The translations under genes and the position numbers were made by a program. The notes beneath the pieces were generated by a model. The model ran no database searches, was not told the origin of the DNA, and worked only from the letters and a program-made list of their open reading frames with translations. From Candidatus Levybacteria bacterium RIFCSPHIGHO2_01_FULL_37_33 (GTDB taxonomy: Bacteria; Patescibacteriota; Microgenomatia; Levybacterales; UBA12049): a DNA stretch of 40,061 nucleotides. The DNA lies in NCBI GenBank assembly GCA_001782085.1, contig MFNM01000045.1, forward strand, positions 1-40,061, read 5' to 3'. Shown in pieces: positions 3,031 to 27,406 of the stretch. Numbering within the stretch: the first letter of the stretch is position 1; every line of letters starts with the position of its first letter.

Positions 3031-3034
3031 ACGT

Positions 3035-3250: not shown

Positions 3251-3255
3251 AAATT

Positions 3256-8192: not shown

Positions 8193-8194
8193 GA

Positions 8195-8223
8195 TTGACA
8201 AATAGTAAATAAAGTTTTATTTT
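8195..8223 (+). promoter_or_regulatory. Putative sigma70 promoter for sodN
   Basis: TTGACA at 8195-8200, 17-nt spacer, TATTTT at 8218-8223. Confidence 0.45.
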
Positions 8224-8231
8224 ATAGTTGC

Positions 8232-8995: not shown

Positions 8996-9018
8996 GATTT
9001 ATGAATTAAGATTTAGGA

Positions 9019-10597: not shown

Positions 10598-12480
10598 AGA
10601 AATTCCGAAGGATCATTATTAATAATGTTTAAATTATTAGATAAGACTTTTTCCGGCAACTCCAACACAAAGCGCGAAACGATATTTGAAGTTCTTTGTC
10701 CGAAGAAAAGTCTTTTTCGCGAGTATGTTAAAAATAATCTTTCTTTAGCACGAGTCATGCCGACATAGCAAAGCCTTCTTTCTTCCTCAAGCTCATTTTT
10801 GTCCATAAGACTTCTTGAATGAGGAAAAAGGCCTTCTTCCATACCTATCATAAAAACTATTGGAAATTCCAAACCTTTTGCGCCGTGAAGAGTCATTAAA
10901 TTTACCGCGTCTTTCTTTTCCCCGTTTTTTGGATGGTCAGGCATATATTCCTGTTCAACCAATGCGACATTTTCCAGAAACTCAATAAGATCAGGGAATT
11001 CTATAGCAACCGACCTTAACTCCTTAATATTTTCAAGTCTTGCCCGGTCCTCCTCGTCCCTTTCATCATACAGAGAAAGATAAGCTGTTTTACTCAGAAC
11101 TTTATCCAGAATTTCAAGAGTCGGTATTGTTTCAACCTTTTTTTCTTTGAAATCTTGCGAAAACTCAATAAACTTACTTAACCTTCCCTTGCCCAATTTT
11201 TCTATTCTTTTGTAGGAAACAGTGTCTTTTGGGTTTGCAATAAGTCTTAAGTATGCCAAAACATCTTTTATCTCACGCCTTTCGTAAAATCTTGTTCCGC
11301 CAATTAAAACATATGGAACTCCCTGATGAAGGAAGCCCTCTTCGATTGCGCGAGACTGGGCATTAGTTCTATAAAGAACTGCAAAGTCGGAATAAGAGAG
11401 ACGGGGATCTTGAGACTTAAGCTCAAGAATCTTATTTATTATATATTCTCCCTCATCATGTTCGTTTCGTGATTCATATAAGGCAACATCTTCTCCTTTG
11501 GGATTTTCTGTCCAAAGGTCAAGTACTGGATGGGAGGTGTTTTTGGAAATAACAGAAGATGCGGCATCAAGTATTTTTTGAGTGGACCTGTAATTTTGGG
11601 AAAGAGAAAAAGTTTCAACATTTTTTCCACCAGAGGCGGATCGTCCTTTGGACGAAAAATCCTCTTTAAATTTTGAGAGATTTTGAAAGTCAGCGCCCCG
11701 CCAGGAATAAATGCTTTGGGAAAAATCTCCGACCACGCAGACATTTGGAGATTTATCAAAATCTGAGCCCGAAAGCATTTTTGTTAGAATATATTGCGCA
11801 TGGTTTGTATCCTGATATTCATCAACTAAAATATATTTGAATTTATCTTGGTATTTTTTAAGAACCTGCGGATTTTTATCGAAAAGCTCTATAGTCTTTA
11901 AAATTAGATCATCAAAGTCCAAAGCATCATTTTCCGAAAGAAGCCTTTGATAGATAGGGTATATTCGTGCTACTGTTTCCTGAAAATATCCTTTTGCATA
12001 ATTTAAATATTCAGATGCTGTTATTAATTGATTTTTTGCTTCGGATATCGTTGTTGAAATCGAAGAAGGCTTAAAGTCTTTAGTTGAGATTTCAAGAATT
12101 TTCATTGTCTCTTTTATTGCATCAATCTGATCTTGATCATCATAAATTACGAAATTTTTAGGAATGCCGATATACTGACCCTCAATTCTTAAAATCTTTG
12201 CGCAGAGAGAATGAAATGTTCCTATGGTTACCTGATGCGCATGCAAATGTTTTCCCAAAAGTCGATAAATTCGCTCACGCATTTCGTTGGCAGCTTTATT
12301 AGTAAAAGTAGTTAAAAGAATATTGTCAGGCGAAACCCCTCTATCTATTAAATAGGCTGTTTTATAAACTAAAACCCTTGTCTTTCCAGACCCTGCGCCG
12401 GCTAATATTATGCATGGACCTTCAATATATATTACTGCCTCTTTCTGTTTTTGATTGAGCAAGGATAAATCAAGTGCCAT
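10594..12480 (-). CDS. pcrA: ATP-dependent DNA helicase PcrA/UvrD
   Basis: AGAGSGKT, DEYQD, QSIYSWRGA, NYRST, EERRLCYVGMTRA. Confidence 0.95.
   Translation of the reverse strand: MALDLSLLNQKQKEAVIYIEGPCIILAGAGSGKTRVLVYKTAYLIDRGVSPDNILLTTFTNKAANEMRERIYRLLGKHLHAHQVTIGTFHSLCAKILRIEGQYIGIPKNFVIYDDQDQIDAIKETMKILEISTKDFKPSSISTTISEAKNQLITASEYLNYAKGYFQETVARIYPIYQRLLSENDALDFDDLILKTIELFDKNPQVLKKYQDKFKYILVDEYQDTNHAQYILTKMLSGSDFDKSPNVCVVGDFSQSIYSWRGADFQNLSKFKEDFSSKGRSASGGKNVETFSLSQNYRSTQKILDAASSVISKNTSHPVLDLWTENPKGEDVALYESRNEHDEGEYIINKILELKSQDPRLSYSDFAVLYRTNAQSRAIEEGFLHQGVPYVLIGGTRFYERREIKDVLAYLRLIANPKDTVSYKRIEKLGKGRLSKFIEFSQDFKEKKVETIPTLEILDKVLSKTAYLSLYDERDEEDRARLENIKELRSVAIEFPDLIEFLENVALVEQEYMPDHPKNGEKKDAVNLMTLHGAKGLEFPIVFMIGMEEGLFPHSRSLMDKNELEEERRLCYVGMTRAKERLFLTYSRKRLFFGQRTSNIVSRFVLELPEKVLSNNLNIINNDPSEFL
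11626..11655. repeat. 30-nt double-hairpin element in-frame in pcrA
   Basis: TCCACCAGAGGCGGA + TCGTCCTTTGGACGA; encodes SSKGRSASGG just before NYRST. Confidence 0.75.
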
Positions 12481-12915
12481 AATTTATTCCTTCTATAAAT
12501 TTTTTATACTTTCTCTCAAGGTATATAGTGGCATTTTTATACATGTAAGTAAATAATTTTACGGCTGCTTTGTGTCCAATTCGTACTTTATAATAAGGTG
12601 TTTTTTGATGAGCCATGCTAATATTAATTCTCCCTTGATAAAAGTTACCAGTCTCTTTTCTTAGTATTCGATATAAAAAACGAGCCATATTAAAACTCGC
12701 AGCGCCATTTCAGGAGACCATAGTTTAAAAAAGTTAGAATTAATAGAGTGCTTTTTTACTTTCTTTTGAAAGGGAAGGTGTCTTACTTTAGATTGTATTG
12801 CGGAATATGATCTTTTAAGAGTTTTCCCTATTTGATTATAGGTTAATTTACCGATCTTATTACTTAGAAGTTCAATTTCTTCTTGTTTCCATGGATGAGT
12901 GTATTGGTTAGGCAT
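12470..12915 (-). pseudogene. HTH-LAGLIDADG homing endonuclease relic with internal deletion/frameshift
   Basis: HTH-like start (W..EEIELL) and NFFKLWSPEMA, the usual lead-in to the first LAGLIDADG helix; jumps near 12703 to another frame AASFNMARFL...YMY...LERKYKKF; catalytic helices absent. Confidence 0.7.
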
Positions 12916-13054
12916 TTATTAAATATATAACCTTATAAGTTAATACTCTTGTCTTGTCCGATCCGGCACCTGCTAAAATAATCATAGGGCCATCGGTTTT
13001 GATAACTGCTTTTTGTTGATCGAAGTTTAAGTCCTTGAGAAAGTCTTTGTCCAT
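12908..13054 (-). pseudogene. pcrA: Orphan duplicate 5' head of pcrA (48 aa)
   Basis: MDKDFLKDLNFDQQKAVIKTDGPMIILAGAGSDKTRVLTYKVIYLINA*; Walker A G>D; stop overlaps the endonuclease ATG (ATGCCTAA). Confidence 0.9.
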
Positions 13055-13101
13055 ACTCTATAATAGAGAAACTCAAGTTATTGTACCATAAGACCCTTCG
13101 T

Positions 13102-13773
13102 ATGAAAAAACTTTTTATTATAGCTAACTGGAAGTCAAATAAAACCATCGAGGAGGCAGAACAGTGGTTTCATGATTTTGCCGAGAAACTAAAATCCGAT
13201 AGCTCCAATATCGAGAATAAGGAAATAATTGTTTGTCCCTCCTTTATTCTTTTTGAACATGCCCGTTATTGTTCGAATAATTTAAAACTTCCTATAAGAT
13301 TCGGCGCACAAAATATCTCGCCTTTTGATAAGGGAGCTTATACAGGAGAAGTAAACGGAGAGCAAATAAAAGAATTTGCGCAATATGTGATTATCGGACA
13401 TTCGGAAAGAAGGAAAAACTTCTCAGAAACAAATGAAATGCTCAAGCAGAAAGTTTTAATGGCAAAAAAATATAATTTAATGCCAATTTTTTGTATTCAA
13501 AATCAAGATTCACCAGTTCCTCAAGAGATTGATGTTATAGCCTATGAGCCTCCGACTGCCATTGGAACGGGTAATCCCGATACACCGGAAAATGCGCAAA
13601 GGGTGGCGAAGATTGTTAAAGAAAGAACAGGCGTTGCGAACGTTCTTTATGGGGGAAGCGTTACATCTTCTAATGTAAAAACGTTTACTAATATGCCGGA
13701 TATAGACGGACTTCTTGTCGGTGGAGCGAGTCTTGATTCCTTAGAGTTTCTTGCCATAATTAAGAATGCATAA
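13102..13773 (+). CDS. tpiA: Triosephosphate isomerase
   Basis: ANWK, GHSERR, AYEP, YGGSV, VGGASL; ATG 13102 preferred to TTG 13081. Confidence 0.95.
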   Translation: MKKLFIIANWKSNKTIEEAEQWFHDFAEKLKSDSSNIENKEIIVCPSFILFEHARYCSNNLKLPIRFGAQNISPFDKGAYTGEVNGEQIKEFAQYVIIGHSERRKNFSETNEMLKQKVLMAKKYNLMPIFCIQNQDSPVPQEIDVIAYEPPTAIGTGNPDTPENAQRVAKIVKERTGVANVLYGGSVTSSNVKTFTNMPDIDGLLVGGASLDSLEFLAIIKNA

Positions 13774-14875
13774 TAAAGAAAGATTCAAAAAAATTGCCCT
13801 AATTATTTTAAGTTTAATAATTCTTTTTTTTGTTGGAAAAGCTGTTGTTAAAATTGCAAAACTTTCGCCGTTTTTGTTTCAGCTTATTTTTAACAGAGAC
13901 ATAAATCTTAAAACAAATGACGGCCATATAAATATTCTTCTTTTGGGGATTGGCGGGAAAAATCATCAAGGTCCAAATCTTACCGATACGGTAATTTTTA
14001 CAAGCCTTTCTACGAAAGGAGATAAAGTTACTTTGGTTTCCATTCCGCGGGACTTATGGGTGCCGGATTTGGACGCAAAGATTAATACGGCATATTCAAC
14101 AGGCGAAAGCAAAAGACCGGGCGGAGGTCTTGTGCTTTCAAAAGCTGTGGTTAAAAAAATAGTTAATCAGCCGATTGATTATGTTTTAAGAATTGACTTT
14201 GACGGTTTTATTAAGGCGGTAGATTTGGTTGGCGGTCTTGAGATAAATGTTGAGAGAACTTTTGATGATTTTGAATATCCAATTGACGGGAAAGAAGAAG
14301 ATCCATGCGAACATACGGATGAAGAACTTAAAGAGTTGGCAACCTCCTCTTCTCAGCTTGAAGCCTTCCCTTGCAGATATACTCATGTACGTTTTGATAA
14401 AGGAGAGCAGAAGATGGATGGAAAAACTGCTCTTCAGTTTGTAAGATCCCGTCATGCACAAGGAGAAGAGGGTTCGGATTTTGCAAGAAGCAAGAGACAG
14501 GAGAAAGTGATTAAAGCTTTTAAAGATAAAATATTCTCTCTTGCGACACTCGCAAATCCTGCGAAAGTGATAAATCTTTACGATATATTAAAGGTAAGTA
14601 TAGATACAGATATAAAAGATGATGAGTTTGATGATTTTATAAGACTTGCCGGAAAAATGAAAACAGCGCAGACAGAAAATGCAGTATTAGATACAGGAGA
14701 CGGGGAAGCAAAACGCCCGGGTCTTTTAATAAATCCTCCCACGGGGGAAGAATATAATTTCGAATGGGTTCTTATTCCAAGAATAGGCAATGGAGATTTT
14801 TCGGAAGTTCAAAAGTATATTGATTGCGAGATTAAGATTGGTAGTTGCCCAGTTTCTACAAAGCCTCAAAGTTAA
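13766..14875 (+). CDS. LytR-CpsA-Psr (LCP) family protein
   Basis: N-terminal TM, TDT, SIPRDLW, KIN, FVRSRH, SDFARSKRQ. Confidence 0.9.
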   Translation: MHNKERFKKIALIILSLIILFFVGKAVVKIAKLSPFLFQLIFNRDINLKTNDGHINILLLGIGGKNHQGPNLTDTVIFTSLSTKGDKVTLVSIPRDLWVPDLDAKINTAYSTGESKRPGGGLVLSKAVVKKIVNQPIDYVLRIDFDGFIKAVDLVGGLEINVERTFDDFEYPIDGKEEDPCEHTDEELKELATSSSQLEAFPCRYTHVRFDKGEQKMDGKTALQFVRSRHAQGEEGSDFARSKRQEKVIKAFKDKIFSLATLANPAKVINLYDILKVSIDTDIKDDEFDDFIRLAGKMKTAQTENAVLDTGDGEAKRPGLLINPPTGEEYNFEWVLIPRIGNGDFSEVQKYIDCEIKIGSCPVSTKPQS

Positions 14876-14881
14876 ATAACA

Positions 14882-16144
14882 ATGGAAAAAATTTTAAGAG
14901 AATACAAAAAAATACCCTCACTGTTAAAACTATACCTAATACTTATTTTACTTATTCGAATATTTTTACTTACTCAACCAAGTTTTAAAATAGACATGAA
15001 TGATTGGCAAGCATGGGCGGCTAGGCTTGTTGATGTAGGCCCTCTTAAGTTTTATACATCCAATTTTTTTGCGGATTATTTACCTTTTTACTATCTTTTT
15101 CTTTGGGTTATTGCGGAAATATTTAGTTTTATTTTTGGCAAAGCTGCTATTTTTTCAACAACTTTCGAAATCTACATAAAAATTATCAGCAATATTTTTG
15201 ATATTTTGACGGCATATACAATTTTTGTCATTATAAATAAACATTCAAAGAAATGGGCTACGATAGGCAGTCTTCTTTATTTAATTAATCCGAGTATTAT
15301 CTTTAACAGTTCTGTTTGGGGACAAATAGACGCTATCCCAACTTTTCTTCTTACTTTTTCTCTATATCAGCTTGAAGAAAAAAAGAATATTGTTAGATCT
15401 CTCTCAGCTAGCGTTTTATCATTTTTAATTAAACCCTTAAATATTGCTCTTTTTCCATTAATGTTATTTAGGATAATTAAAAATTTTTCGGCTCAAAAAA
15501 TATTAAAAGCATCCGGAATATCCTTATTGATGTTTTTTATTGTCACAATACCATTTTTCCCAAATAATCCAATTTTTGGACCATTTGAACATTTATTAAA
15601 ATCTTTGAATGTTTATCCTTATACTTCTATTAACGCTTATAATTTTTGGGCACTTTTTGGATGGTGGAAACAAGACTCATTACAAGTCTTTAATCTTTCA
15701 TATCATCTATGGGGATATATTTTATTTTTCTTAATAGTTTTGACTATTTTTATTCCTTTATTCAGAAAAAAATCAAAATCATTTATAAAACTAGATTATC
15801 TTATATATACGATTTTATCATTTGCTTTCTTTTTATTTTTGACCCGCATTCATGAACGCCACTTGTTTCCGGTCTTTGCGTTACTTATTATTTCAGCGTG
15901 TATTTTTAAATCAAGAGTTCTAATAGCAAGTTACATTACGCTTGCAATTGTGAATTTTATTAATCTATTTTATTCATATTACTATCACAACGTTATTTAC
16001 AATAACCCTATGGCTCCAAAAAATATTCTCTTTGACATATCCTCAAATTATCAATTGATTTTTTCTGTACTTTCACTTATCGTCTTTAGTATTATGCTTG
16101 TAGTTTATTTTAAAAATCAACGGCTATTTATTAAAAAGAAGTAA
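14882..16144 (+). CDS. GT-C fold polytopic glycosyltransferase
   Basis: DYLP, NSSVWGQID, HERH motifs; many TMs. Confidence 0.75.
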   Translation: MEKILREYKKIPSLLKLYLILILLIRIFLLTQPSFKIDMNDWQAWAARLVDVGPLKFYTSNFFADYLPFYYLFLWVIAEIFSFIFGKAAIFSTTFEIYIKIISNIFDILTAYTIFVIINKHSKKWATIGSLLYLINPSIIFNSSVWGQIDAIPTFLLTFSLYQLEEKKNIVRSLSASVLSFLIKPLNIALFPLMLFRIIKNFSAQKILKASGISLLMFFIVTIPFFPNNPIFGPFEHLLKSLNVYPYTSINAYNFWALFGWWKQDSLQVFNLSYHLWGYILFFLIVLTIFIPLFRKKSKSFIKLDYLIYTILSFAFFLFLTRIHERHLFPVFALLIISACIFKSRVLIASYITLAIVNFINLFYSYYYHNVIYNNPMAPKNILFDISSNYQLIFSVLSLIVFSIMLVVYFKNQRLFIKKK

Positions 16145-16145
16145 T

Positions 16146-17495
16146 ATGTCTAAAGTAATCAGTGAAAAAGTAAAAAATTCAATTAAAGAAATCTTAAGCA
16201 AAAAAAGCTGGCTTCCCGAAATTATAATTTTTGCCTTTGCATTTTTCACCCGTTTTATAAGGTTAAATGTACCAAATAACTATATGTTTGATGAGGTTTA
16301 TCACGCATTTACCGCAGGGCAAATGTTCAAAGGAAATCCTGCTGCTTGGGAATGGTGGAATACTCCGCCCAAAGGTTTTGCATATGAGTGGACACACCCG
16401 CCCTTAGCCAAGGAATTTATGGCGTTTGCAATTTGGCTTTTTGGTGATAATGTCTTTGCGTGGCGATTTTTTTCAGCTCTTTTCGGTTTTGGCGTAATAG
16501 TTCTTATTTATTTAACTGCCTATAAACTTTTTAAAAACCGTTTAATTGCGTTATTTGCGGCTTTTGCTGCTTCTATGGACGGACTTCTTCTGGTTATGTC
16601 GCGTATTGCTATGAACGATATGTATTTTTTATTTTTTATTTTACTCGCTTTCTTATTTTTATTGTACAACCGAAAACTTTTGATGGGTTTGTCATTGGGG
16701 CTTTCTATCGCATCAAAATGGACCGGCCTTTTTGGATTGGGAATAATTGGGACAGTATATGTTGCTCAGCTTGTTTTAAAACTAAGAAAAAAAGATATCT
16801 CCAAAAAAATTTATATAAAAGATCTAATAGCAGCGCCTTTATTCTTTTTAATTATTCCCCTGCTTGTTTATTTAGCTGTTTATCTGCCATTTTTTACCGG
16901 AAAACATACCCCTTCGGGAAACAAACCGTCAGTTTTTAACACGGAAACTTTTATCGGCTTGCAGAAGCAAATGTATTGGTATCACACACGTCTTAAGGCA
17001 ACTCATCCATCTCAATCAATCCCGACTCAATGGGCACTTAATCTTCGTCCTGTTTGGATTTATGTTGATTATAAAGATAATAATACTATTGCCAATATTT
17101 ATAGCTTGGGCAATCCGCTCTTTATGTGGTTTGGATTAATATCGGTTATTTTTCTCCTCTTTGAATTTATTAGAAAAAGGACTTTGGGAATAGCAATAGT
17201 TCTTATTGGATATTTTGGGTTTTTTCTGCCATGGGTTGGTTCTCCCAGAATAATGTTTTATTATCATTACATGCCGGCAGTTCCGTTTTTGGCAATTGCA
17301 ACAGGTTATGTTCTTAACAAACTTTTGTCTAAAAAAGTCGGTAAAGCATTCGTAATAACTTTTCTTTCTCTATTATTAATTTTATTTGTTTATTTCTTTC
17401 CATTGTGGACGGCAATTCACATACCCCGGTGCATAAATCCTCAGGGATGCACCAGTTGGTACGATTCTTACTTTTGGTTTACCAGCTGGAAATAG
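16146..17495 (+). CDS. Protein O-mannosyltransferase-like (GT39/PMT)
   Basis: FDEVYH, HPPLAK, SRIAMND, SKWTG, YHYMPA. Confidence 0.85.
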   Translation: MSKVISEKVKNSIKEILSKKSWLPEIIIFAFAFFTRFIRLNVPNNYMFDEVYHAFTAGQMFKGNPAAWEWWNTPPKGFAYEWTHPPLAKEFMAFAIWLFGDNVFAWRFFSALFGFGVIVLIYLTAYKLFKNRLIALFAAFAASMDGLLLVMSRIAMNDMYFLFFILLAFLFLLYNRKLLMGLSLGLSIASKWTGLFGLGIIGTVYVAQLVLKLRKKDISKKIYIKDLIAAPLFFLIIPLLVYLAVYLPFFTGKHTPSGNKPSVFNTETFIGLQKQMYWYHTRLKATHPSQSIPTQWALNLRPVWIYVDYKDNNTIANIYSLGNPLFMWFGLISVIFLLFEFIRKRTLGIAIVLIGYFGFFLPWVGSPRIMFYYHYMPAVPFLAIATGYVLNKLLSKKVGKAFVITFLSLLLILFVYFFPLWTAIHIPRCINPQGCTSWYDSYFWFTSWK

Positions 17496-17500
17496 CTTCA

Positions 17501-18679
17501 TTACATTGTCCAAATATTCAAATAATTAATCATAATTACTCCCCATAGATTAACGATTATACTTAACAAAAGAAGTAGATAGGCAACCGGTTTTGGTTTT
17601 TGCCCAACGCCAAGAGCAACCAGAATAAGGATAAAGGGCATAAAATCCTGTGCGAAACGGTATCCAAATTGACTAAAACCAACAACTACCCAGAGAGAGA
17701 TAATGAAAAAAGTGGTTATGATTGCAGACCAGCAGGCGAATACTAAAAGGGATTTTTTTGCCTTAAAAATTAAAACAACTGCGGGAGAGGTAACCCAAAT
17801 TGCTATACTATAAAGCGATGGGGTGATATAAGACCAGGAATTTTGGATCTGAGGTAACCGTAAAAACATGGCATCAATATGGAGAGGAATATTTTTTAAG
17901 CTTAAAAAGCCGTTTTTAACGGACTCGCTTCTTTGTGCAGGAGGAATCATTTGATAAGGTGAAATTGGACTTAAGCTTGAAAACCTTAAAAAGTTATATA
18001 TGCTGTCTAAGCCAATAAAAACTCCAATACCTAAGAATAAATGGATTAAGTTATAGATCGCTTTTTTATTAATGGGTAAAAATTTATCCTTCATATAAAA
18101 AAGGAAAAAGGGAAGAGTAAAAATTATGGTTGATCTAGACCAAAAACTTGCTCCTAACAATAGCCCAATAAGAAACAATCTTTGTTTAGAAAATGTTTCT
18201 CTTATTGCTAAAAGGAGGAAGAAAAGAGCGACTATATGAGCTAAATACCAAGAAGATCCGACGCTGGATAAAAACCAATAATTTGTTCCGAAAGCAAAGA
18301 AAACTGTTGTCACAAATGCGGTTATGCTAGTTATTTTTATTCGTTTAAGAAGGCTATATAAAATTACGGGATTAAGACTGCCCAAAAATATTGAAAAAGC
18401 AGTTTGTGAAAATCCGGCGCCGAAAATTGCAACAAACGGAATTAATAATATTGCAGGCATAGGAGGGTATGCAACATAATATTTTCCATTAATTGGTATT
18501 AATTCATTAAGCCAAGAGGGGTTTTCCAGTAAATAAAGCCTGTGATTAATAAAGGCATCGGCAAGCCTGACAAAATAGTCATACGGAGTATTTTTAGAAG
18601 AAGTAAGAAAGTAGATTATAAAAGTAATTCCGAATATTAAAAAATACACAAAGTAGGGATGAAGTTTATTTATTTTCAT
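17501..18679 (-). CDS. Polytopic membrane protein, probable GT-C glycosyltransferase
   Basis: YYVAYPPMPA, FGTNYW, QFGYRFAQD; about 10 TMs. Confidence 0.6.
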   Translation of the reverse strand: MKINKLHPYFVYFLIFGITFIIYFLTSSKNTPYDYFVRLADAFINHRLYLLENPSWLNELIPINGKYYVAYPPMPAILLIPFVAIFGAGFSQTAFSIFLGSLNPVILYSLLKRIKITSITAFVTTVFFAFGTNYWFLSSVGSSWYLAHIVALFFLLLAIRETFSKQRLFLIGLLLGASFWSRSTIIFTLPFFLFYMKDKFLPINKKAIYNLIHLFLGIGVFIGLDSIYNFLRFSSLSPISPYQMIPPAQRSESVKNGFLSLKNIPLHIDAMFLRLPQIQNSWSYITPSLYSIAIWVTSPAVVLIFKAKKSLLVFACWSAIITTFFIISLWVVVGFSQFGYRFAQDFMPFILILVALGVGQKPKPVAYLLLLLSIIVNLWGVIMINYLNIWTM

Positions 18680-20342: not shown

Positions 20343-20345
20343 AAA

Positions 20346-20969
20346 TTATTCTTTAAAATATGCAGTTCCCTTAACATCGGACTGTAAAGTATTTAGCTTA
20401 GCCCCCTTGCTAAGAGAAATAGTGTCTAAAGATATAACTCTTTCCATGTCCGATAAGACGCCTATAAACTTATTTATATTATCGTAAGTTCCCTCTGCGG
20501 AAACCGAAAAAGAGAAAGAGGAATATTTTTTTTGATTTTGGGGCAGGCCTGTTACTTCAACCTCAAAAATTTGAAGTCTTGTAATTTCAATACCTGTCTT
20601 TTCTGCTACCGCCTGCGCCTGCGCCATCAGAAGCGGAACCTGAGGATTTTTTGGAACAGCGGCTAAAACAATTGGGATATCCTTTTGGACAACATTATAT
20701 TTTTCCTGAAGAGTGGAGAGATTTGCAATTTTTTCTTGAAGTTGACTATCTACAAATTTATTGTCTGACAGTTCTTTGTTGAGTTTTGCAATAGTCGATA
20801 GGGTCGGATTGATAGCAAATAATCCGAAAAAAGATAAAGCTAATAAGGAAAAAACAATGCTTGAGTATTTCTGTGTTTTTTCTTTTTTTAGATCGGGAAG
20901 AAGTGCAATATATTTATTATTCTTTATATTTTTAAATACGCCACTCAGATTATATTTTGGAAATGCCAT
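20346..20969 (-). CDS. pilO: Type IV pilus assembly protein PilO-like
   Basis: TM, coiled coil, EGTYDNINKFI...MERVI. Confidence 0.75.
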   Translation of the reverse strand: MAFPKYNLSGVFKNIKNNKYIALLPDLKKEKTQKYSSIVFSLLALSFFGLFAINPTLSTIAKLNKELSDNKFVDSQLQEKIANLSTLQEKYNVVQKDIPIVLAAVPKNPQVPLLMAQAQAVAEKTGIEITRLQIFEVEVTGLPQNQKKYSSFSFSVSAEGTYDNINKFIGVLSDMERVISLDTISLSKGAKLNTLQSDVKGTAYFKE

Positions 20970-20971
20970 AT

Positions 20972-21514
20972 CTAGTTCTCCTTAAGAGCTGCCGTAATAC
21001 TTACGCTTATCAAAGCATTCGATAATTTATTCTCTATTTTTACTATGCTTACGTTTTTAACATTAGGATAACTTTTAAGAGAATTCACAAAAGTTCTAAG
21101 GGAGGATATAAATTGAAAATTTGCGTCTATTTTTATATTATTTTCTGTTAATGTAAGATCATTAAATGTCATTCCTAAAGGAGCAAGTCCTACTATATCA
21201 TTCAAGACTTTAACATCTTTTCCCCCTGACTGGAGGAATGTCGATGCAACCGCAATTCTATCCTGTAAATTTCTATATGCTTCCTCTTTCCCTTTTAGGT
21301 AGCCTACAATCGCTTCCTCCTGCTTTATCTTTGAATGCAAATCAATCAGTTGTCTATCCAAGGTAAACCGATATAAAAAAGCCGATAACGCAATAACTTC
21401 TGTAAGAATTACTACGAGTCTTCCAATTGTTAAAGCCCAATCGACAAATTTATCAAAAATACCAGCATGTTTATCATTTAAAAGATTTATAGAAGGATGG
21501 TGGTTTTTTGGCAC
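20972..21514 (-). CDS. pilN: Type IV pilus assembly protein PilN-like
   Basis: GTG start; INLL motif, TM, coiled coil, PilN-like C-domain. Confidence 0.7.
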   Translation of the reverse strand: MPKNHHPSINLLNDKHAGIFDKFVDWALTIGRLVVILTEVIALSAFLYRFTLDRQLIDLHSKIKQEEAIVGYLKGKEEAYRNLQDRIAVASTFLQSGGKDVKVLNDIVGLAPLGMTFNDLTLTENNIKIDANFQFISSLRTFVNSLKSYPNVKNVSIVKIENKLSNALISVSITAALKEN

Positions 21515-21561
21515 ACTTTTAGTCTAGGGATTTTTAAAAGTTTTGTCAAAGAGAAATGAAG

Positions 21562-21825
21562 TTATTTTTTCTTAGTTTTTTTAGCTGCTTTCTTACTAAT
21601 TAACTTTGAAAGCTTAGACTTAATTCTTGAAGCCTTATTTTTATGAATAATATTCTTCTTTTTGGCCTTATCAACCAGTTTTATTGCATCCTTTACAGCT
21701 TTTTCTGTTTTGCTTTTTTGGGCTTTTTTAACAGAGTATTTAAAAAGATTTTCTATTTTTTTATTTTCTTGTGTTCTTACTTTATCCTTTCTCAATTTTT
21801 TCCTGGCAGATTTTGTTACTGGCAT
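21562..21825 (-). CDS. rpsT: 30S ribosomal protein S20
   Basis: KSARKKLR...DKAKKKNIIHKNKASRIKSKL. Confidence 0.95.
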   Translation of the reverse strand: MPVTKSARKKLRKDKVRTQENKKIENLFKYSVKKAQKSKTEKAVKDAIKLVDKAKKKNIIHKNKASRIKSKLSKLISKKAAKKTKKK

Positions 21826-21831
21826 AGGCAG

Positions 21832-21849
21832 ATTTTACCATGTTATACT
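21832..21849. promoter_or_regulatory. Back-to-back extended -10 promoters for rpsT (-) and murJ (+)
   Basis: Minus-strand TGgTAAAAT 6 nt before the rpsT ATG; plus-strand TGtTATACT at 21841-21849. Confidence 0.6.
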
Positions 21850-21861
21850 TTTAATTACAAT

Positions 21862-23520
21862 ATGCCTAAGAATTTCCTGCGAAAAAGTCTCAATATTTTA
21901 CTTGCCCGCCAAACAAATATCTTAAGCGCCGCTTTTATAATTATGATTACAATTGTCTTGTCGCAAGTTTTAGGACTTGTTAGGCAAAGGCTATTGGTTT
22001 CAATTTTTGGTGCATCAAACATCCTTGGAGTTTATTTTGTCTCAACTCGTCTCCCTGATTTTCTTTTCCAACTAATTATTGCGGGGGCTTTATCATCTGC
22101 TCTTATACCTGTCTTTTCCGATTATCTGGGAAAAGAAAAACAAGAAGATGCTCACAAATTAGGATCTACGCTTCTTACTCTGGGACTTATTGGCTTTACG
22201 ATTCTTGCTACTATTCTTTTTATTTTTTCACTTAATTTCTCAAAGCTTATAGCGCCGGGATTTTCACATGAACAGCTTCTTCTGATGTCAAATTTGATGA
22301 GGATAATTATAGTAGGACAGCTGTTGTTTATAATTGGCAGTTTTTTTTCAGCTGTTCTCCAATCGCACAACCATTTTTTTATACCCGGATTTGCTTTAGC
22401 TTTATATAATCTCGGAATAATAATTGGAATATTATTGCTAAATTCTGCTGTCGGAATATACTCAGCAGCTTATGGAGTAATTTTGGGTGCGTTTATCTTC
22501 GTAATAGTTCAGATACCTCTTATTAGAAATGTCAGATTTTCCCTTAAACCTTCTTTTTCCTTCAAAGATAGAGGAATCTCTCAAGTTTTAAAATTAATGT
22601 GGCCCAGAACTCTCTCAATTGCTATTTTTCAACTAGGGACACTTCTTACTGTAACTTTTGTTTCCTTTCTTCAAGATCCGGGAAGAAAATATGTAATTTT
22701 CGATCTTGCACAGACACTTGCCTTTGCCCCAGTTTCTCTTATCGGAAATGCAATCGCACAGGCGGCATTTCCTGTACTTTCAAGAGAAAAAGATAAGCTT
22801 GATGAATTTAAGGCCACTTTTATAACCAGTTTTAATCAGATGTTGTATTTGATTCTCCCAGTTTCGGTTTTATTTCTCGTTCTTAGAATCCCCTTGGTGC
22901 GTCTTATTTACGGTGCTTCCCGGTTTGATTGGCCGGCGACGGTTTTAACCGGGCGGACATTGGCTTTTTTCAGTATTTCAATTTTTGCCCAGTCACTGAT
23001 CTATTTGATCTCACGCGGATTTTATGCACTGCATGATACAAAAATGCCGCTTATTGTCGGAGCAGCAACAACTGCTCTTATGATATTTTTAAGCTGGATT
23101 TTTATTTTTATTTATCAAATGGGTATTGAAAGCATTGCTTTTTCTTTCTCAATTGCCACTATTGTCAATCTTCTCGTATCTTTTATTCTCCTTGACATAA
23201 AAGTGGGAGGTTTTAAAAGAGTAGAGTTTATTTTTTCAATCTCAAAAATATTTCTGGCAACATTTTTTACAGGATTTGCGCTTTATGTGCCCATAAAGCT
23301 TTTGGATCAGCTTGTTTTTGACACTACAAGAACAGTCAATCTATTAATGCTCACCGGAATTTCTTCTCTGGCAGGTCTTTCTCTTTACCTTTTCTTAACG
23401 TGGCTTTTTGATGTCAAAGAAGCATCGACGTTTCTTCTTATTTTTAGGAAGATAGGAAACTGGAGAGAGATACTTTCAAAAAGCGAAGAAACCCTCGACG
23501 CCACCCATATTAAGGTTTAG
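21862..23520 (+). CDS. murJ: Lipid II flippase MurJ/MviN
   Basis: LGLVRQR, RLPD, GALSSALIP, RGFYALHDTK; ATG 21862 avoids overlap with rpsT. Confidence 0.9.
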   Translation: MPKNFLRKSLNILLARQTNILSAAFIIMITIVLSQVLGLVRQRLLVSIFGASNILGVYFVSTRLPDFLFQLIIAGALSSALIPVFSDYLGKEKQEDAHKLGSTLLTLGLIGFTILATILFIFSLNFSKLIAPGFSHEQLLLMSNLMRIIIVGQLLFIIGSFFSAVLQSHNHFFIPGFALALYNLGIIIGILLLNSAVGIYSAAYGVILGAFIFVIVQIPLIRNVRFSLKPSFSFKDRGISQVLKLMWPRTLSIAIFQLGTLLTVTFVSFLQDPGRKYVIFDLAQTLAFAPVSLIGNAIAQAAFPVLSREKDKLDEFKATFITSFNQMLYLILPVSVLFLVLRIPLVRLIYGASRFDWPATVLTGRTLAFFSISIFAQSLIYLISRGFYALHDTKMPLIVGAATTALMIFLSWIFIFIYQMGIESIAFSFSIATIVNLLVSFILLDIKVGGFKRVEFIFSISKIFLATFFTGFALYVPIKLLDQLVFDTTRTVNLLMLTGISSLAGLSLYLFLTWLFDVKEASTFLLIFRKIGNWREILSKSEETLDATHIKV

Positions 23521-23558
23521 CCCTTGATTTCAGTTCTTTTTTAAATTATTATTCGCTT

Positions 23559-24683
23559 ATGGCAGGAAAAGGTAGCGAGCAGGAACCTCAAACATATGCT
23601 TCAACAGGTGTTAATTATGAAGCAATGGATCCCTTCAAAAGATTAGCACAGCTTAAAGCTCGTGAAACGTCCTCAAATCTTCGCCGTTTTGGAATGTTTG
23701 AAATAGAGGCAAGCCGTGGCGAGTCAGCTTATGTTTGGAGAGAAGGAGATTCATACAGGGCATTTGTCATAGAAGGATTGGGTACCAAAAATTTGGTAGC
23801 AGATGAAATGAGAAAAATAACAGGTAAAACATATTATGATCAGATTGCTCAAGACACCGTTGCAATGATAGTAAATGATCTAATTGTTGTAGGGGCAGAT
23901 CCCCAAGTGGTAAACGCTTATTTTGCAGTTGGAGATTCAGATTGGTTTTCCGATGAAGAAAGATCAAAAGATTTAGTTGAAGGATGGCAAAGAGCATGCA
24001 ATTTAGCCGGTGCTGTTTGGGGAGGAGGAGAAACCCCCACATTAAAGGGTATTATATCTCCCGATACTATAGACTTATCGGGTTCTGCAATAGGCCTTAT
24101 AGAACCAAAAGAAAGACTGACTTTGGGTGAAAAAATAGTTCCAGGAGATGCAATTTTATTGATTGAAAGTAGCGGAATTCATGCAAATGGTCTAACCCTT
24201 GCAAGAACGATTGCAGAAAAACTTCCAGACGGATATGCTACTGAATTATCGGATGGAATAATGTATGGAGAAGCTCTTTTAACCCCAACCCATATTTATA
24301 GAAAGCTAATAAGTTATTTATTTCATGAGAAGATAGATATTCATTATATGGTAAATATTACAGGTCATGGATGGAGAAAACTTATGAGAGCGGCTAGAGA
24401 TTTTGCCTATGTTATCAATAGGGTTCCCACGCCTCAGCCTATATTTGAATTTATCCAACAGCAATCTGGCAATGACGATTCTGAAATGTATGGCAACTTT
24501 AATATGGGAGCGGGTTTTGCAATTTTTCTTCCGCAAAAAGATGTAGATACAGCAATCGAAATAGTAAGAGATAATCACTTTATGGATACATTAAATGCCG
24601 GAGTTGTTCAGGAAGGACCAAGACAGGTGATTATTCAACCAAAAAATTTGGTATTCTCCGGAGAAACTCTCGACGTAAGATAG
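23559..24683 (+). CDS. purM: Phosphoribosylformylglycinamidine cyclo-ligase (AIR synthase)
   Basis: EGLGTK, VNDL, GGET, SSGIHANG, NITGHG, FNMGAG. Confidence 0.9.
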   Translation: MAGKGSEQEPQTYASTGVNYEAMDPFKRLAQLKARETSSNLRRFGMFEIEASRGESAYVWREGDSYRAFVIEGLGTKNLVADEMRKITGKTYYDQIAQDTVAMIVNDLIVVGADPQVVNAYFAVGDSDWFSDEERSKDLVEGWQRACNLAGAVWGGGETPTLKGIISPDTIDLSGSAIGLIEPKERLTLGEKIVPGDAILLIESSGIHANGLTLARTIAEKLPDGYATELSDGIMYGEALLTPTHIYRKLISYLFHEKIDIHYMVNITGHGWRKLMRAARDFAYVINRVPTPQPIFEFIQQQSGNDDSEMYGNFNMGAGFAIFLPQKDVDTAIEIVRDNHFMDTLNAGVVQEGPRQVIIQPKNLVFSGETLDVR

Positions 24684-24716
24684 TAAAGATTTTTTTCTTT
24701 CTGATATAATTTCTCC

Positions 24717-24840
24717 GCCAATTTTAAACCTCAAACGTTGTAGCTATTTGGAAAATAGCTAGGATAATTTAATCTAATGATCTAGATCATTAGACTTTCA
24801 GATTAAATATTAATTCATCACGTTTGCATCTAGGTTTGGT
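24717..24840 (+). ncRNA. Candidate structured RNA or leader of unknown family
   Basis: TGaTATAAT at 24702-24710; nested pairings AAACCT/AGGTTT, CAAACG/CGTTTG, TAGCTATTT/AAATAGCTA; 22-bp perfect palindrome at 24773-24794. Confidence 0.35.
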
Positions 24841-24852
24841 ATAATTCTTGCT

Positions 24853-24906
24853 ATGGATCAAAATCACATTAGGAATTTTGCGATTGTTATCCATGTTGTC
24901 TATTGA
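24853..24906 (+). pseudogene. lepA: Orphan duplicate 5' head of lepA (17 aa)
   Basis: MDQNHIRNFAIVIHVVY* vs intact MKQGNIRNFAIIAHIDH; TGgTATAAT 7 nt upstream. Confidence 0.85.
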
Positions 24907-24939
24907 CAAAACTATTATAGTTACTATAATTAGTATAGT
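24903..24939 (+). promoter_or_regulatory. TA operon promoter with palindromic operators
   Basis: TTGACA 24903-24908, 16 nt, TATAAT 24925-24930; AACTAT-t-ATAGTT (24910-24922) and ACTATA-N5-TATAGT (24923-24939). Confidence 0.7.
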
Positions 24940-25194
24940 ATGTTGAAAAATATAAGCATGCTTGATTTGAGAAAAAGACCAGGACAGGTTTTGGACGAAA
25001 CTTTCTATAAAAAGTATCGTTTTGTAGTCAATAGAAATAAGAAGGCAATGGCTGTTATTATTCCACTTGAGGATTTTAAAAGATATTTTGAAGATGAGGA
25101 TATAGAGTTATATTCAAAACAGAGAATTAAAGAATTTCTAAAGGAAGATAGACTTTCTCCTTCTCAACTTAAGCTATTAAAATCACAAAAGTGA
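24940..25194 (+). CDS. Phd/YefM-like antitoxin
   Basis: ISMLDLRKRPGQVLD...FVVNRNKKAMAVIIPLEDF; GTGA-coupled to the PIN gene. Confidence 0.8.
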   Translation: MLKNISMLDLRKRPGQVLDETFYKKYRFVVNRNKKAMAVIIPLEDFKRYFEDEDIELYSKQRIKEFLKEDRLSPSQLKLLKSQK

Positions 25195-25613
25195 TCAAAG
25201 CCTTTCTTGACGCAAATATATTGTTTGCCGCCGCGTATTCTTCAACAGGCGGTTCTTTTTATATTTTAGAACTGGCAAAAAAAGATAAAATCAAAGTTTT
25301 TACATCCAGACTCGCGGTAAAAGAAGCAGAAAAAAACTTGCGCGACAAAGCATCGGAAGAAGCGCTTGACCGATTTTATAATTTTATGAGCGAAATAGAT
25401 ATTAAATTTGTTGAAGCAAATCGTGATTTAGCAAAAAGTGAATTTTCAAGAATTACCGGGGAGAAAGATGCTCCGATTTTTGCCGCCGCATTAAAGTCAG
25501 GAGCTGTTTTTTTAATAACACTTGATAAAAAACACTTACTTAATATTAGATTCTCCAAGATAGGAAAACTACAAATTGTGTCTCCCGGAGATTTTATCGA
25601 GAAACATTTATGA
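25191..25613 (+). CDS. PIN-domain (VapC-like) toxin
   Basis: FLDANILF, E, KDAPI, LITLDKKH; stop overlaps the lepA start (ATGA). Confidence 0.85.
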   Translation: MIKAFLDANILFAAAYSSTGGSFYILELAKKDKIKVFTSRLAVKEAEKNLRDKASEEALDRFYNFMSEIDIKFVEANRDLAKSEFSRITGEKDAPIFAAALKSGAVFLITLDKKHLLNIRFSKIGKLQIVSPGDFIEKHL

Positions 25614-27406
25614 AACAAGGTAATATCAGGAATTTTGCAATTATTGCGCATATTGATCACGGCAAGTCTACTCTTGCAGACCGCATTATGGAAATATGCG
25701 GTGCCATCGGTAAGAAACATCAGGAGCAAATATTAGACAGTTTGGAACTTGAGAGAGAACATGGAATAACTATAAAACTAAAGGCAATCCGTCTTAACTA
25801 TCAACTATTAACTATCAACTATCAACTAAATTTATTAGATACTCCGGGGCATGTCGATTTTTCTTACGAAGTTTCAAGATCTCTTGCATCAGTTGAGGGG
25901 GCGATATTAGTTGTTGACGCAACACAAGGAGTTCAGGCACAGACTCTTTCTAATTTTAACTTGGCAATTGATGCCAATCTTACACTTATCCCTGTTATCA
26001 ACAAAATTGACACGCCGGCAGCGGACGTTGACAAGACGGCTAAAGAGCTTATAGATTTGGGATTCAAAGCCTCGGAAATTGTAAAAGTTTCAGCCAAAAC
26101 CGGAGAAAACGTCGAAAAATTGCTTGGGGAAATTATTAAAAAGATTCCTGCTCCAGATTCTTCATCTGCGACTCAGAATGACATATTGCGTGCTCTAATT
26201 TTTGACTCAAGCCTCGATCCCTATAAAGGAGTCATTGTGACGTGCAGACTTTTCGGCGGCTCTCTCAGAGTCGGGGATGAAATCTCTTTTTTAGCAACAA
26301 AAGCAAAAGGGCAAGTATTACAGGCAGGCTTCTTGAATCCGAAACCGCACTATATGCAGGAGATAAAAACAGGTGAGGTTGGTTTTATTGTTACAAATAT
26401 AAAAGATTTATCTCTTGTTAAAGTTGGTGATACGATAACTCATCCAAAAGAAATGGTAAAACCGCTGCCTGGATACCGGCAGGCAAGACCTGTTGTTTTT
26501 CTCTCATTTTTTCCGACGGACTCATCGGAGTTTCAAAAAATGAAAGAGGCTTTTGAGAAACTTAAATTAAACGATGCAGCCCTTGCGTATTCACCTGAAT
26601 CTTCTATTTCCCTAGGACAGGGTCTTCGTGTTGGGTTTTTGGGACTTCTTCATGCCCAGATTACCCAGGAAAGACTTGAGCGTGAATACGGCCTAGATAT
26701 TATAGTAACTTCACCTTCCGTTAATTTTATTATTGACAATAAAACTATCAACAGACCTTCCGAGTTTAATCCCAGCCCGCAATCTCAGGTTGAAGAGCCC
26801 TATGCCAAGGTTACAATTTTTGCTCCCCAAAAATACTACGGACAAATAAACGAACTGATTTATAAAAAACGGGGGAAAATTGAAAATTCTGTAAATATCG
26901 GCGTATCCCTTAAAATTGAGGCAATTATTCCGGTTCTTGAGATACTAATCGGTTTTTATGATGACTTGAAGTCCCAAACCTCAGGCTTTGCTTCCTTTGA
27001 CTTTGAAGTAATTGATTACAGGCCGGCTAAACTGGTAAAGCTGGACATTCTGGTTAATTACGAGCCGGTTGAAGGTCTTTCTCAGGTAGTTCCGATTGAA
27101 AAAGCAGAGGAATTCGGCAGGAAACTGGTGGCAAAACTAAAAGAAGAAATTCCCCGTCAAAATATTCCGATTCCGCTGCAGGCTGTTATCAATTTTGCGA
27201 AAATAAAGGGAGGATTGGGTGGAAAAATTTTGGCACGCGAAACAATCGCAGCATATCGAAAGGACGTTACAGCAAAACTGTACGGCGGAGATGTTACCCG
27301 AAAAACGAAACTTTTAGAAAAACAGAAAAAAGGTAAAAAACGAATGAAGAAATTTGGTCAAATAGAGATACCACAGGAAGCTTTTTTGGCGGTGTTAAAG
27401 ATTTAA
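25610..27406 (+). CDS. lepA: Translation elongation factor 4 (LepA)
   Basis: AHIDHGKSTLAD, DTPGHVDF, NKID, GFLGLLH, KLLEKQKKGKKRMK. Confidence 0.97.
   Translation: MKQGNIRNFAIIAHIDHGKSTLADRIMEICGAIGKKHQEQILDSLELEREHGITIKLKAIRLNYQLLTINYQLNLLDTPGHVDFSYEVSRSLASVEGAILVVDATQGVQAQTLSNFNLAIDANLTLIPVINKIDTPAADVDKTAKELIDLGFKASEIVKVSAKTGENVEKLLGEIIKKIPAPDSSSATQNDILRALIFDSSLDPYKGVIVTCRLFGGSLRVGDEISFLATKAKGQVLQAGFLNPKPHYMQEIKTGEVGFIVTNIKDLSLVKVGDTITHPKEMVKPLPGYRQARPVVFLSFFPTDSSEFQKMKEAFEKLKLNDAALAYSPESSISLGQGLRVGFLGLLHAQITQERLEREYGLDIIVTSPSVNFIIDNKTINRPSEFNPSPQSQVEEPYAKVTIFAPQKYYGQINELIYKKRGKIENSVNIGVSLKIEAIIPVLEILIGFYDDLKSQTSGFASFDFEVIDYRPAKLVKLDILVNYEPVEGLSQVVPIEKAEEFGRKLVAKLKEEIPRQNIPIPLQAVINFAKIKGGLGGKILARETIAAYRKDVTAKLYGGDVTRKTKLLEKQKKGKKRMKKFGQIEIPQEAFLAVLKI
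25794..25828. repeat. (TYAACTA)x5 heptamer tandem inside lepA
   Basis: TTAACTA TCAACTA TTAACTA TCAACTA TCAACTA; encodes LNYQLLTINYQL. Confidence 0.85.
26156..26182 (+). repeat. 27-nt in-frame element GATTCTTC-N8-CTCAGAATGAC (copy 2, in lepA)
   Basis: Encodes DSSSATQND in the G-domain/domain II linker. Confidence 0.75.

Follow-up and report, generated by a model that had tools for sequence, protein, structure and literature searches.

Probable replacement gene starts beside an endonuclease relic and a toxin-antitoxin pair at pcrA and lepA of a Candidatus Levybacteria genome

The genomes of Patescibacteria and DPANN archaea are very small, with few classical mobile elements and a variable gene content, and how these organisms acquire genes is poorly understood. 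Elsewhere, prophages and islands can integrate into a gene and supply a replacement for its end, as e14 and phage 21 do at icd in Escherichia coli. The present analysis concerns two loci, at the helicase gene pcrA and at the translation factor gene lepA, on a contig of Candidatus Levybacteria bacterium RIFCSPHIGHO2_01_FULL_37_33 (MFNM01000045.1, assembly GCA_001782085.1), in which cargo genes lie between a stranded copy of the gene start and a second start that belongs to the intact gene. The closest described systems come from organelles, phages and the laboratory. In fungal mitochondria, mobile open reading frames (mORFs) carry a foreign gene C-terminus, as reported for atp6, atp9, cox2 and nad3 of Glomus sp. 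(Beaudet et al. 2013, PMC3630166) and, as cited there, for the atp6 mORF of Allomyces macrogynus; in that account, the native C-terminus is left downstream and groups with close relatives. The free-standing homing endonucleases of the seg and mob families in T4-type phages are described as moving by intronless homing with co-converted flanks (Edgell et al. 2010, PMC2988022). Homology-facilitated illegitimate recombination is described as a laboratory route of integration in naturally transformable bacteria (PMC3240628), and a paper on homing endonucleases in Patescibacteria deals with insertions in rRNA genes (PMC11270868).

The window, that is, the whole 40,061-base stretch analyzed here, is contig C45 of an 850-kb, 52-contig metagenome bin assigned to Candidatus Levybacteria in the Patescibacteria. 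This genome is coded G000; other G codes denote compared genomes, and L codes extracted loci or contigs. Comparisons covered 245 genomes of the order, a species-level genome collection, which was scanned with an alignment of six intact endonuclease proteins as the seed, and a metagenome scan. The original prediction, made from the letters of the window, described two loci with one layout: an orphan gene head, cargo, and a second head whose start overlaps the last cargo gene. Both loci are indeed built in this way. With a probability of roughly 70%, we read each of them as a small mobile cassette lodged in the first 17-48 codons of a conserved P-loop gene and equipped with its own replacement 5′ end. 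Because such a cassette brings a replacement 5′ end, the gene stays whole, and the resident 5′ end is stranded as a stub behind the old promoter.

At pcrA, all features of which are read on the minus strand, the intact gene (10594-12480) encodes a UvrD/PcrA helicase of 628 residues (Pfam UvrD-helicase, 1.8e-88). From about codon 56 on it is the vertical allele, while about codons 1-55 (12316-12480) are a substitute, foreign head fused in frame to the vertical body, as judged from the identity profile, the DNA alignment and the head tree. Upstream of it lie two pieces of an endonuclease relic: a C-terminal piece at 12470-12706, corresponding to residues 193-269 of the intact family (53% identity to the G027 protein, E 6e-21), and an N-terminal piece at 12700-12915, corresponding to the helix-turn-helix-like part at about residues 1-72 (57% identity to the same protein, E 1.6e-25). 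Next comes the orphan pcrA head (12908-13054), 48 codons of a dead vertical allele that falls in the clade of its own genus and is matched by Pfam UvrD-helicase at E 1.6e-10. In a whole-genome search it aligns with residues 8-46 of the intact pcrA product at 66.7% identity over 39 amino acids (E 4.9e-8), and its Walker A motif reads GSDKT, as against GSGKT. At the DNA level, the two head copies are 58% identical (81/139 nt) and hence not exact attachment-site repeats. Two cargo open reading frames (ORFs) in different frames, 12661-12915 and 12470-12688, separate the orphan from pcrA; the stop of the orphan overlaps the start of the first (12915) by 8 nt, and the last, which ends at 12470, overlaps the pcrA start by 11 nt.

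The region in front of the orphan (13055-13108) is recognizable by consensus matches only as the ancestral pcrA promoter region, with TTTTCA-17-TACAAT and an upstream TG at 13108-13080 and TATTAT 5 nt before the orphan ATG. This old promoter would now drive the orphan and, presumably, the relic and pcrA as well. The best promoter match of the divergent tpiA gene (TTGAGA-18-TATAAT, 11/12, at 13035-13064 on the plus strand) lies inside the orphan head, which could explain why the first codons of the stub have been retained. The original prediction had placed both orphan heads outside the ORF track; this fails for the pcrA orphan, an ordinary ORF of 48 amino acids that appears in an ORF list with a 40-residue minimum.

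The nature of the pcrA cargo emerges from its relatives. Specifically, the two cargo ORFs match opposite ends of an intact endonuclease of G027, a protein of 271 amino acids with two LAGLIDADG motifs (Pfam LAGLIDADG_3 at 1e-11) that is itself encoded directly upstream of the G027 pcrA. In an alignment with six intact homologues, the relic is shifted in frame, retains residues 1-71 and about 193-271 and lacks residues 72-192, including both LAGLIDADG motifs, so the window holds a dead descendant and not a working member. By homology, then, the cargo is a dead homing-endonuclease gene derived from a double-LAGLIDADG family. The term LAGLIDADG relic, used in the original prediction, is thus right by homology only, both motifs having been deleted; Pfam returns nothing beyond sub-threshold Myb and DUF matches on the two relic ORFs and finds the LAGLIDADG domain in neither piece.

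LAGLIDADG-type matches occur in 21 of the 245 genomes of the order. Where homologues reach at least 45% identity and the context can be read, they stand directly before pcrA in 10/10 genomes, with stop and start overlapping; distant LAGLIDADG genes, at 37% identity or less, do not adjoin pcrA. These ten loci are called linked here, with an endonuclease gene beside pcrA, and endonuclease-free loci unlinked. Eight of the ten genomes come from the 245 of the order (G000, G027, G222, G180, G085, G086, G146 and G172), and the other two are a complete Woesebacteria genome and a metagenome-assembled genome labelled Saccharimonadales; a further partial match in G122 is cut by a contig end, has no readable context and stands outside the count. 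In all ten, the cassette is equally compact, with the endonuclease directly between stub or spacer and pcrA, and the genomes that carry it are scattered on the tree of pcrA bodies, a patchy distribution at one fixed site that conflicts with host phylogeny. The endonuclease ORF is a separate one that overlaps its neighbours out of frame and does not lie within an intron or intein. The intron or intein reading of this cargo was rejected: no Rfam family, and with it no group I or II intron, was matched in the window, and the head exists in two copies instead of being split. In G180 (L063 / L113), the pcrA gene behind the intact endonuclease changes frame near residue 114 and has about 43 residues fewer than the window protein, through either a frameshift or an assembly error.

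Heads and bodies of pcrA tell different histories. The orphan head is 93.6% identical in amino acids to the head of the same-genus genome G003 and 83-89% identical to those of four other close relatives; against G002, its DNA agrees at 128/144 nt, and the gene body shows a like divergence (116/131 nt). The functional head shares only 60-63% identity with same-genus heads over residues 1-30. Along the intact protein, sliding-window identity to G002 is 0.63-0.73 over residues 1-70 and about 0.9 from residue 61 on, with the body 91% identical, while identity to the endonuclease-linked G085 is 0.90 at residues 41-70 and drops to 0.56 beyond. All linked genomes share an unusual head (MAxDLSxLN ... 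YLIDxG ... NILLTTFT) that has one residue fewer than its unlinked counterpart. A tree of residues 1-56 places 9/10 linked heads, the functional head of G000 among them, in one clade (support 95/93) and the orphan head within its own genus (98/85). In a tree from residue 75 to the end, the linked genomes are scattered, with strongly supported branches that force at least four changes; G000 joins G002, G001 and G003 at support 100, and gene bodies follow taxonomy. One clade of heads on scattered bodies indicates that the endonuclease gene and the head behind it travel together between lineages and that the stub is the resident head. By these comparisons, the stub is the vertically inherited pcrA head and the functional head is foreign. 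The original prediction that functional heads are not the vertical alleles is thereby borne out at pcrA; at lepA, the functional head is identical to same-genus relatives beyond residue 5.

The joints can be placed with some precision. On the right-hand side, inside conserved pcrA and near AATATTCT/ACTACTTTTACT, the DNA of G000 stops resembling the linked type at about codons 50-58 and becomes nearly identical to that of G002. On the left, the endonuclease ATG directly adjoins resident codons 46-48 (ATA AAT GCC), and G000 is without the conserved promoter-like stretch gcagctttgttataatactata that precedes the endonuclease start in other linked genomes; abutment and loss together point to an illegitimate left joint with about 6-7 nt of microhomology (ATAAATGCC compared with ATAATGCC). 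The end of the orphan coincides with the sole indel, of one codon, between linked and unlinked head types, and for that reason cleavage is tentatively placed there; that the endonuclease cut near pcrA codon 47-48 is a guess.

As predicted, orphan heads go with cargo. A head-start motif, the same one for all loci, lies within 450 nt upstream of 5/10 endonuclease-bearing and 0/27 endonuclease-free pcrA loci. Besides G000, such a stub is present in G085 and G086, which belong to the same genus, and in G146 and G180: the opening 12-14 codons of an ordinary pcrA head stand in front of the endonuclease (MDNLILKDLNKE.., MHNDFLKELNKD.., MENNFLKDLNEEQK..). In G085, G086 and G146, this stub stands directly behind the tpiA-facing promoter; the neighbour gene in G180 is not tpiA. 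The difference in stub length means either that joints differ between events or that stubs were later shortened. In G085 and G146 (L109 and L111, 2440-2500), about 60 nt before the endonuclease start, an in-frame DLN..AALL stretch lies between the 12-codon stub and the promoter; speculatively, it may be a second, older head remnant carried with the cassette, so that stubs would be nested.

The lepA locus, on the plus strand, repeats this layout with cargo that contains no nuclease of the homing type. Its intact gene (25610-27406; 598 amino acids; Pfam GTP_EFTU and LepA_C) is 84-92% identical to same-genus lepA, and its first ~60 nt form the cassette-linked head (MKQGN...). Upstream, a TATAAT at 24840-24845, read from the sequence as the ancestral leaderless-type promoter, stands 7 nt before the ATG of an orphan lepA head of 17 codons and a stop (24853-24906; MDQNHIRNFAIVIHVVY), which is identified by its match to the functional head and by the same stub in the metagenome contig L186. 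The cassette has a promoter of its own, TTGACA-16-TATAAT (24903-24930; 12/12 to consensus, 33/33 nt the same in L186), with its -35 element overlapping the orphan stop and palindromes behind it that form a candidate operator. There follow a phd/yefM-type antitoxin gene of 84 amino acids (24940-25194; PhdYeFM_antitox 1.5e-8, 34.7 bits at a cut-off of 29.8) and a PIN-domain toxin gene of 140 amino acids with a GTG start (25191-25613; PIN_3 1.2e-9, 39.4 bits at a cut-off of 27). The phd stop and the PIN start overlap as GTGA at 25191-25194, and the PIN stop and the lepA start share ATGA. With Phd/YefM and PIN domains above curated cut-offs, the antitoxin gene first and the genes overlapping, the two read as a type II toxin-antitoxin pair; the PIN protein has acidic residues where the PIN active site is expected, as judged by eye only.

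Orphan and functional lepA heads agree at 9/15 residues, Met on Met (genome-wide E 0.012-0.045), and at the DNA level they form a 47-nt direct repeat, 72% identical, with copies 757 nt apart. In an empirical test of gene heads against their upstream sequences, lepA ranks 6th of 783 genes, and equal scores arise in 2/1565 shuffled gene/upstream pairings; the other high scorers resemble pilin or signal-peptide starts and tandem paralogues. Taken alone, the match of the lepA stub is only suggestive. It becomes convincing because the lepA of cargo-free relatives starts alike, with MDKKN, VDQKN or MDKDN followed by IRNF or IKNF, directly behind TATAAT (which reads YNF/YNL in translation), and because a second contig, L186, has the same stub. 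The functional head begins with MKQGN in G000 and MKQNN in L186, as against MDKKN, VDQKN or MDKDN in the cargo-free relatives.

The same contig provides evidence that the lepA cassette moves. PIN homologues are present in 19 of the 245 genomes of the order, G000 included, and in none of the other 18 does lepA stand beside one. The metagenome scan returned a single contig, L186, with phd (93% identity), PIN (83%) and lepA (74%) in the same overlapping arrangement and, upstream of phd, a more decayed stub that reads ME, a stop, SDIRNSAIITHVVY and another stop. DNA identity between G000 and L186 is 90-100% over 24880-25450, which takes in the 3′ part of the stub, the promoter, phd and two thirds of PIN. 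Outside this tract it falls to 63-80% over the remainder of PIN; within lepA it is 83-88% for the initial 60 nt and 67-78% further on; in the upstream spacer it is about 48-52%, and the neighbouring purM-like proteins are 50% identical in amino acids. The 5′ parts of the two stubs differ, and the 3′ parts are common to both. Vertical descent cannot explain a toxin-antitoxin pair far more alike than the adjacent conserved translation factor, and the cassette has thus, demonstrably on these identities, been exchanged horizontally between distant genomes. The tract opens within the stub, where the conserved G1 motif is encoded, and closes within PIN; such ends would fit recombination between cassettes, or entry via the stub as a homology arm.

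Some neighbouring observations complete the lepA comparison. In L186, purQ and purL lie between the purM-like gene and the stub, and its lepA (3420-4658) has an extra segment of ~33 residues after about residue 62, relative to the window lepA. A further phd-PIN pair, on L187, was not counted as an instance, with identities of 68% and 55% and no orphan head; L187 (2741-3426; 3603-5732) has this pair between rpsG and fusA, 180 nt before another translational GTPase gene.

These observations can be joined into a mechanism in which a cassette would enter by a nuclease break or by one-sided recombination and then spread via homologous recombination. At pcrA, a free-standing double-LAGLIDADG gene that moves with one distinctive head would amount to homing with co-conversion of the adjoining exon. 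In G000, the right crossover would have fallen at about codon 50-58, and the illegitimate left joint at its 6-7-nt microhomology would have cost the endonuclease its own promoter; the endonuclease has decayed since. The lepA cassette combines the 3′ portion of the stub with a perfect promoter, phd, PIN and a new head. It probably came in through one-sided, homology-facilitated illegitimate recombination of the same kind, unaided by any nuclease of its own. It would now be spread or exchanged by ordinary homologous recombination, with stub and new head as flanking homology to any lepA.

Several features of the genome are relevant to this mechanism. G000 has ComEC-type and RecA genes. In line with the original prediction, neither integrase nor transposase was found among the 19 ORFs scanned with Pfam between 10.6 and 27.4 kb, and the pcrA and lepA loci yielded no terminal inverted repeats. 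The prediction had also proposed that leaderless promoters fixed to the start codon would favour landing inside the head, and leaderless-type starts are indeed common in G000: in 63 + 30 (93) of 819 starts, a spacer of 6 or 7 nt separates the end of a -10-like hexamer from the start codon, as against about 7 per spacing elsewhere, and a Shine-Dalgarno-like motif is found in only 39/819. Overlapping stops and starts, together with the promoters, suggest that the expression of pcrA and lepA would depend on their cargo.

Further end replacements were found in the same genome and beyond it. A scan of all 832 ORFs of G000 against their own genome gave four more candidate end duplications, three of which were kept and one rejected. 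At a pyrH-like amino-acid kinase gene, a 38-codon orphan head matches same-genus heads (MGNNHKEKIVMS...), while the functional head resembles that of another family; the orphan head thus appears vertical and the functional head of a foreign type. This locus (L266; G000:C22:24500-29500) comprises the orphan kinase head at 1527-1641, a gene for a B12/radical-SAM-Nudix fusion protein at 1649-3718 and the intact kinase gene at 3772-4482. Over its full length, the kinase shares only 73-77% identity with same-genus copies, so that most or all of it may be foreign. At comM (L269; G000:C3:5000-16000), an orphan head of ~33 codons at 818-925 is separated from the intact gene (9192-10751) by an 8.3-kb island of phage- or plasmid-like genes, the large serine recombinase gene of which (7637-9310) overlaps the new comM start by 118 nt; this is an integrase-borne version of head replacement. 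The 3′-end counterpart, with non-selfish cargo, is rnhB (L267; G000:C14:33000-37000; features at 1090-1182, 1234-2385 and 2484-3182), where a family-4 glycosyltransferase gene, not present at the rnhB loci of relatives, is followed by a 31-codon orphan RNase HII tail with 80.6% identity to the functional one. The fourth candidate, an orphan tail on contig C10, was dropped as the template/variable repeat pair of a diversity-generating retroelement, with a bAvd gene and adenine-specific mismatches. In that locus (L268; G000:C10:6000-9500; 803-1231 on the plus strand, 1266-1385 and 1695-2525 on the minus strand), the bAvd-like gene (Pfam 9.6e-15) stands beside a target gene of 276 amino acids, the 3′ repeat of which differs from the downstream copy almost only at the adenines of that copy.

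Additionally, a comparable arrangement occurs in an archaeon. In the Micrarchaeota archaeon L116, a 17-codon orphan pth2 head (2257-2319) is followed by an intact LAGLIDADG gene of 331 amino acids (2309-3304) and an intact pth2 (3289-3639); the start of the endonuclease gene overlaps the end of the stub and its stop overlaps the start of the intact pth2, as at the pcrA locus of the window. L116 emerged when 79 LAGLIDADG loci were screened for duplicated heads (E < 0.01): in 18, a co-directional gene lay right behind the endonuclease, and only L116 scored; as the pcrA loci show, this threshold misses stubs of 12-14 codons.

Other explanations have to be weighed against mobile cassettes with replacement gene starts. 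Both cassettes might be leftovers of integrase-borne islands that had supplied a replacement gene end and then lost the integrase and most of their length, so that only addictive or selfish genes were left. Such an origin would suit the three tyrosine and three serine recombinase genes of G000, the fact that toxin-antitoxin pairs are typical island cargo, and comM, where a 33-codon orphan head, an 8.3-kb island and a recombinase gene overlapping the new start occur in the same genome. All six recombinase genes, however, lie on other contigs and none on the 40-kb window contig, the endonuclease cassette is compact in all ten genomes and the toxin-antitoxin cassette of L186 just as compact, and the duplicated heads are 58-72% identical where attachment-site repeats would be exact; we regard such remnants as unlikely. 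Local partial duplication of a gene start, followed by insertion of unrelated cargo, would make both heads vertical and the orphan merely the decayed one. This is contradicted at pcrA, where tree and mosaic boundary mark the functional head as foreign and the orphan as vertical, and the pyrH-like kinase likewise pairs a vertical orphan with a foreign-type functional head. At lepA it can appeal to residues 6-35 of the functional head, which are identical to those of same-genus relatives, and to the 72% identity of the two copies over 47 nt, which could reflect the decay of one; yet the cassette and the 3′ part of the stub are 90-100% identical to L186, the flanks of which diverge far more. On balance, simple duplication is quite improbable.

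An assembly chimera, in which co-occurring strains or species were joined at conserved P-loop sequence into a falsely duplicated head, is conceivable for a 52-contig metagenome bin, given that conserved P-loop DNA is common to community members and that contigs of other organisms diverge at 25668 as loose ends. Independently assembled contigs from four non-source runs nevertheless match the pcrA locus with 0 differences, at 12286-13054 (two runs), 12239-13054 and 12682-13086, and thereby bridge the new head, the relic and the orphan; the runs correspond to four study codes (P1, P3, P4 and P6), which may belong to one campaign. Among the matches listed, no independent contig crosses the lepA junction; L186, an unrelated contig that repeats the lepA layout, is the independent evidence there. 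Since, moreover, the joints are not at repeats and comparable stubs occur in four other bins and on an unrelated contig, a chimera has hardly any probability left, and the expectation in the original prediction that the structure is no misassembly stands.

The reading of both loci as mobile cassettes with replacement gene starts also has evidence against it. At pcrA, the stubs of the four other linked genomes measure 12-14 codons and not 47, 5/10 linked loci have no visible stub, and in G172 a degenerate endonuclease accompanies a pcrA head that groups among unlinked heads. No close donor has been sampled: the substitute head of G000 is only ~70% identical in DNA to the nearest linked heads, and the relic shows a protein-level identity of only 53-57%. 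At lepA, the functional head departs from that of relatives in its first 5 residues alone, residues 6-35 being identical within the genus, so that a foreign origin of this head is not established. The end of the high-identity tract inside PIN fits the exchange of already resident cassettes better than a first insertion, and the arrangement, which is the non-nuclease case, is known from two genomes only. The analogous comM locus, in the same genome, carries a large serine recombinase, a caveat in its own right. Finally, cleavage, transcription and transfer were none of them observed directly, and the mechanism is built from sequence. Taken together, the original prediction is largely supported. 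It had named three outcomes that would count against it, namely orphan heads as frequent without cargo as with it, functional heads that are simply the vertical alleles, and misassembly, and all three came out in its favour; the mechanism, in contrast, is one that we infer, and the lepA case comprises two genomes.

Whether such hitch-hiking on gene starts is a general, integrase-free route of colonization into the tiny genomes of CPR bacteria and DPANN archaea is a more tentative matter, and we consider it possible but somewhat less than an even bet. On this proposal, a cassette would consist of a head remnant, any cargo and a recoded head, and could enter any genome that has the gene. Remnant and recoded head would act as homology arms that travel with the cargo and target the best-conserved DNA of the gene, for instance its P-loop or G1 motif. 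In turn, recoding would stop the two copies from recombining the cargo out and, for nuclease cargo, would also confer immunity to cutting. With leaderless starts, the cassette would capture the host promoter and place translation of the host gene downstream of the cargo, so that loss becomes costly. One route could thereby serve nuclease cargo (pcrA, pth2), addiction modules (lepA) and metabolic genes (radical-SAM/Nudix at the pyrH-like kinase). If true, this would go some way towards explaining gene gain in reduced genomes: beyond DNA uptake and RecA, the route would require nothing but a duplicated stretch of a conserved gene. There are practical implications, too: marker genes, among them pcrA, lepA and pyrH, can be foreign over their first 20-60 codons, short head stubs escape annotation, and the order of stub, cargo and recoded head is a testable design for integrase-free insertion in competent bacteria.

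What appears to be new is a mirror-image (5′) gene-end replacement in cellular chromosomes of ultra-small prokaryotes, along the mechanism proposed above, together with a fixed endonuclease-pcrA partnership with a travelling head allele and a nuclease-free cassette of the same architecture that is exchanged between distant genomes. A literature search of limited coverage returned no 5′-end version in a bacterial or archaeal chromosome and no toxin-antitoxin pair in such a layout. Integrating prophages of the e14 and phage 21 type resemble the present loci in that a duplicated, diverged gene end flanks the insert and the gene remains intact, and the comM island fits this type; they require an integrase and attachment sites, however, neither of which was found at pcrA or lepA.

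Intronless homing, as described for T4-type phages, shares with the pcrA locus a free-standing endonuclease gene beside its presumed target that is inherited with co-converted flanks, and the promoter-less cassette of G000 likewise rides on a host promoter. In that description, the phage enzymes are of the GIY-YIG or HNH type, are intergenic and leave no duplicated gene end, whereas the enzyme at pcrA is of the LAGLIDADG type and encoded in a cellular chromosome, and the gene start there is both duplicated and recoded. Homology-facilitated illegitimate recombination would be similar in combining one homologous joint, here in the gene body, with one microhomology joint and no integrase, and ComEC and RecA are present; the source on it treats it as a laboratory integration route and not as one from which heritable, spreading cassettes with a substitute gene end arise, and its action here is proposed by analogy.

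The nearest likeness is to the mitochondrial mORFs as Beaudet and colleagues describe them. There, as here, LAGLIDADG enzymes are involved, an endonuclease ORF separates a substitute gene end from the stranded native one, the hybrid gene is functional, and the native end groups with close relatives while the inserted end is foreign, a pattern that is also seen at pcrA. The differences are in orientation, host and cargo: in the window it is the 5′ end that is replaced, which leaves the promoter with the native piece and joins the substitute piece to the gene body; instead of an organelle, the host is a Patescibacteria chromosome (and that of a Micrarchaeota archaeon); the mORF is fused in frame, whereas here the endonuclease ORF and its neighbours overlap in different frames; and a nuclease-free toxin-antitoxin cassette shares the layout. 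With the N-terminus replaced and the frame not continued, the pcrA layout is by analogy better regarded as a mirror image of the mORF than as a member of that class. If this reading is true, it extends the mitochondrial mobile-ORF phenomenon to cellular chromosomes and to the 5′ ends of genes.

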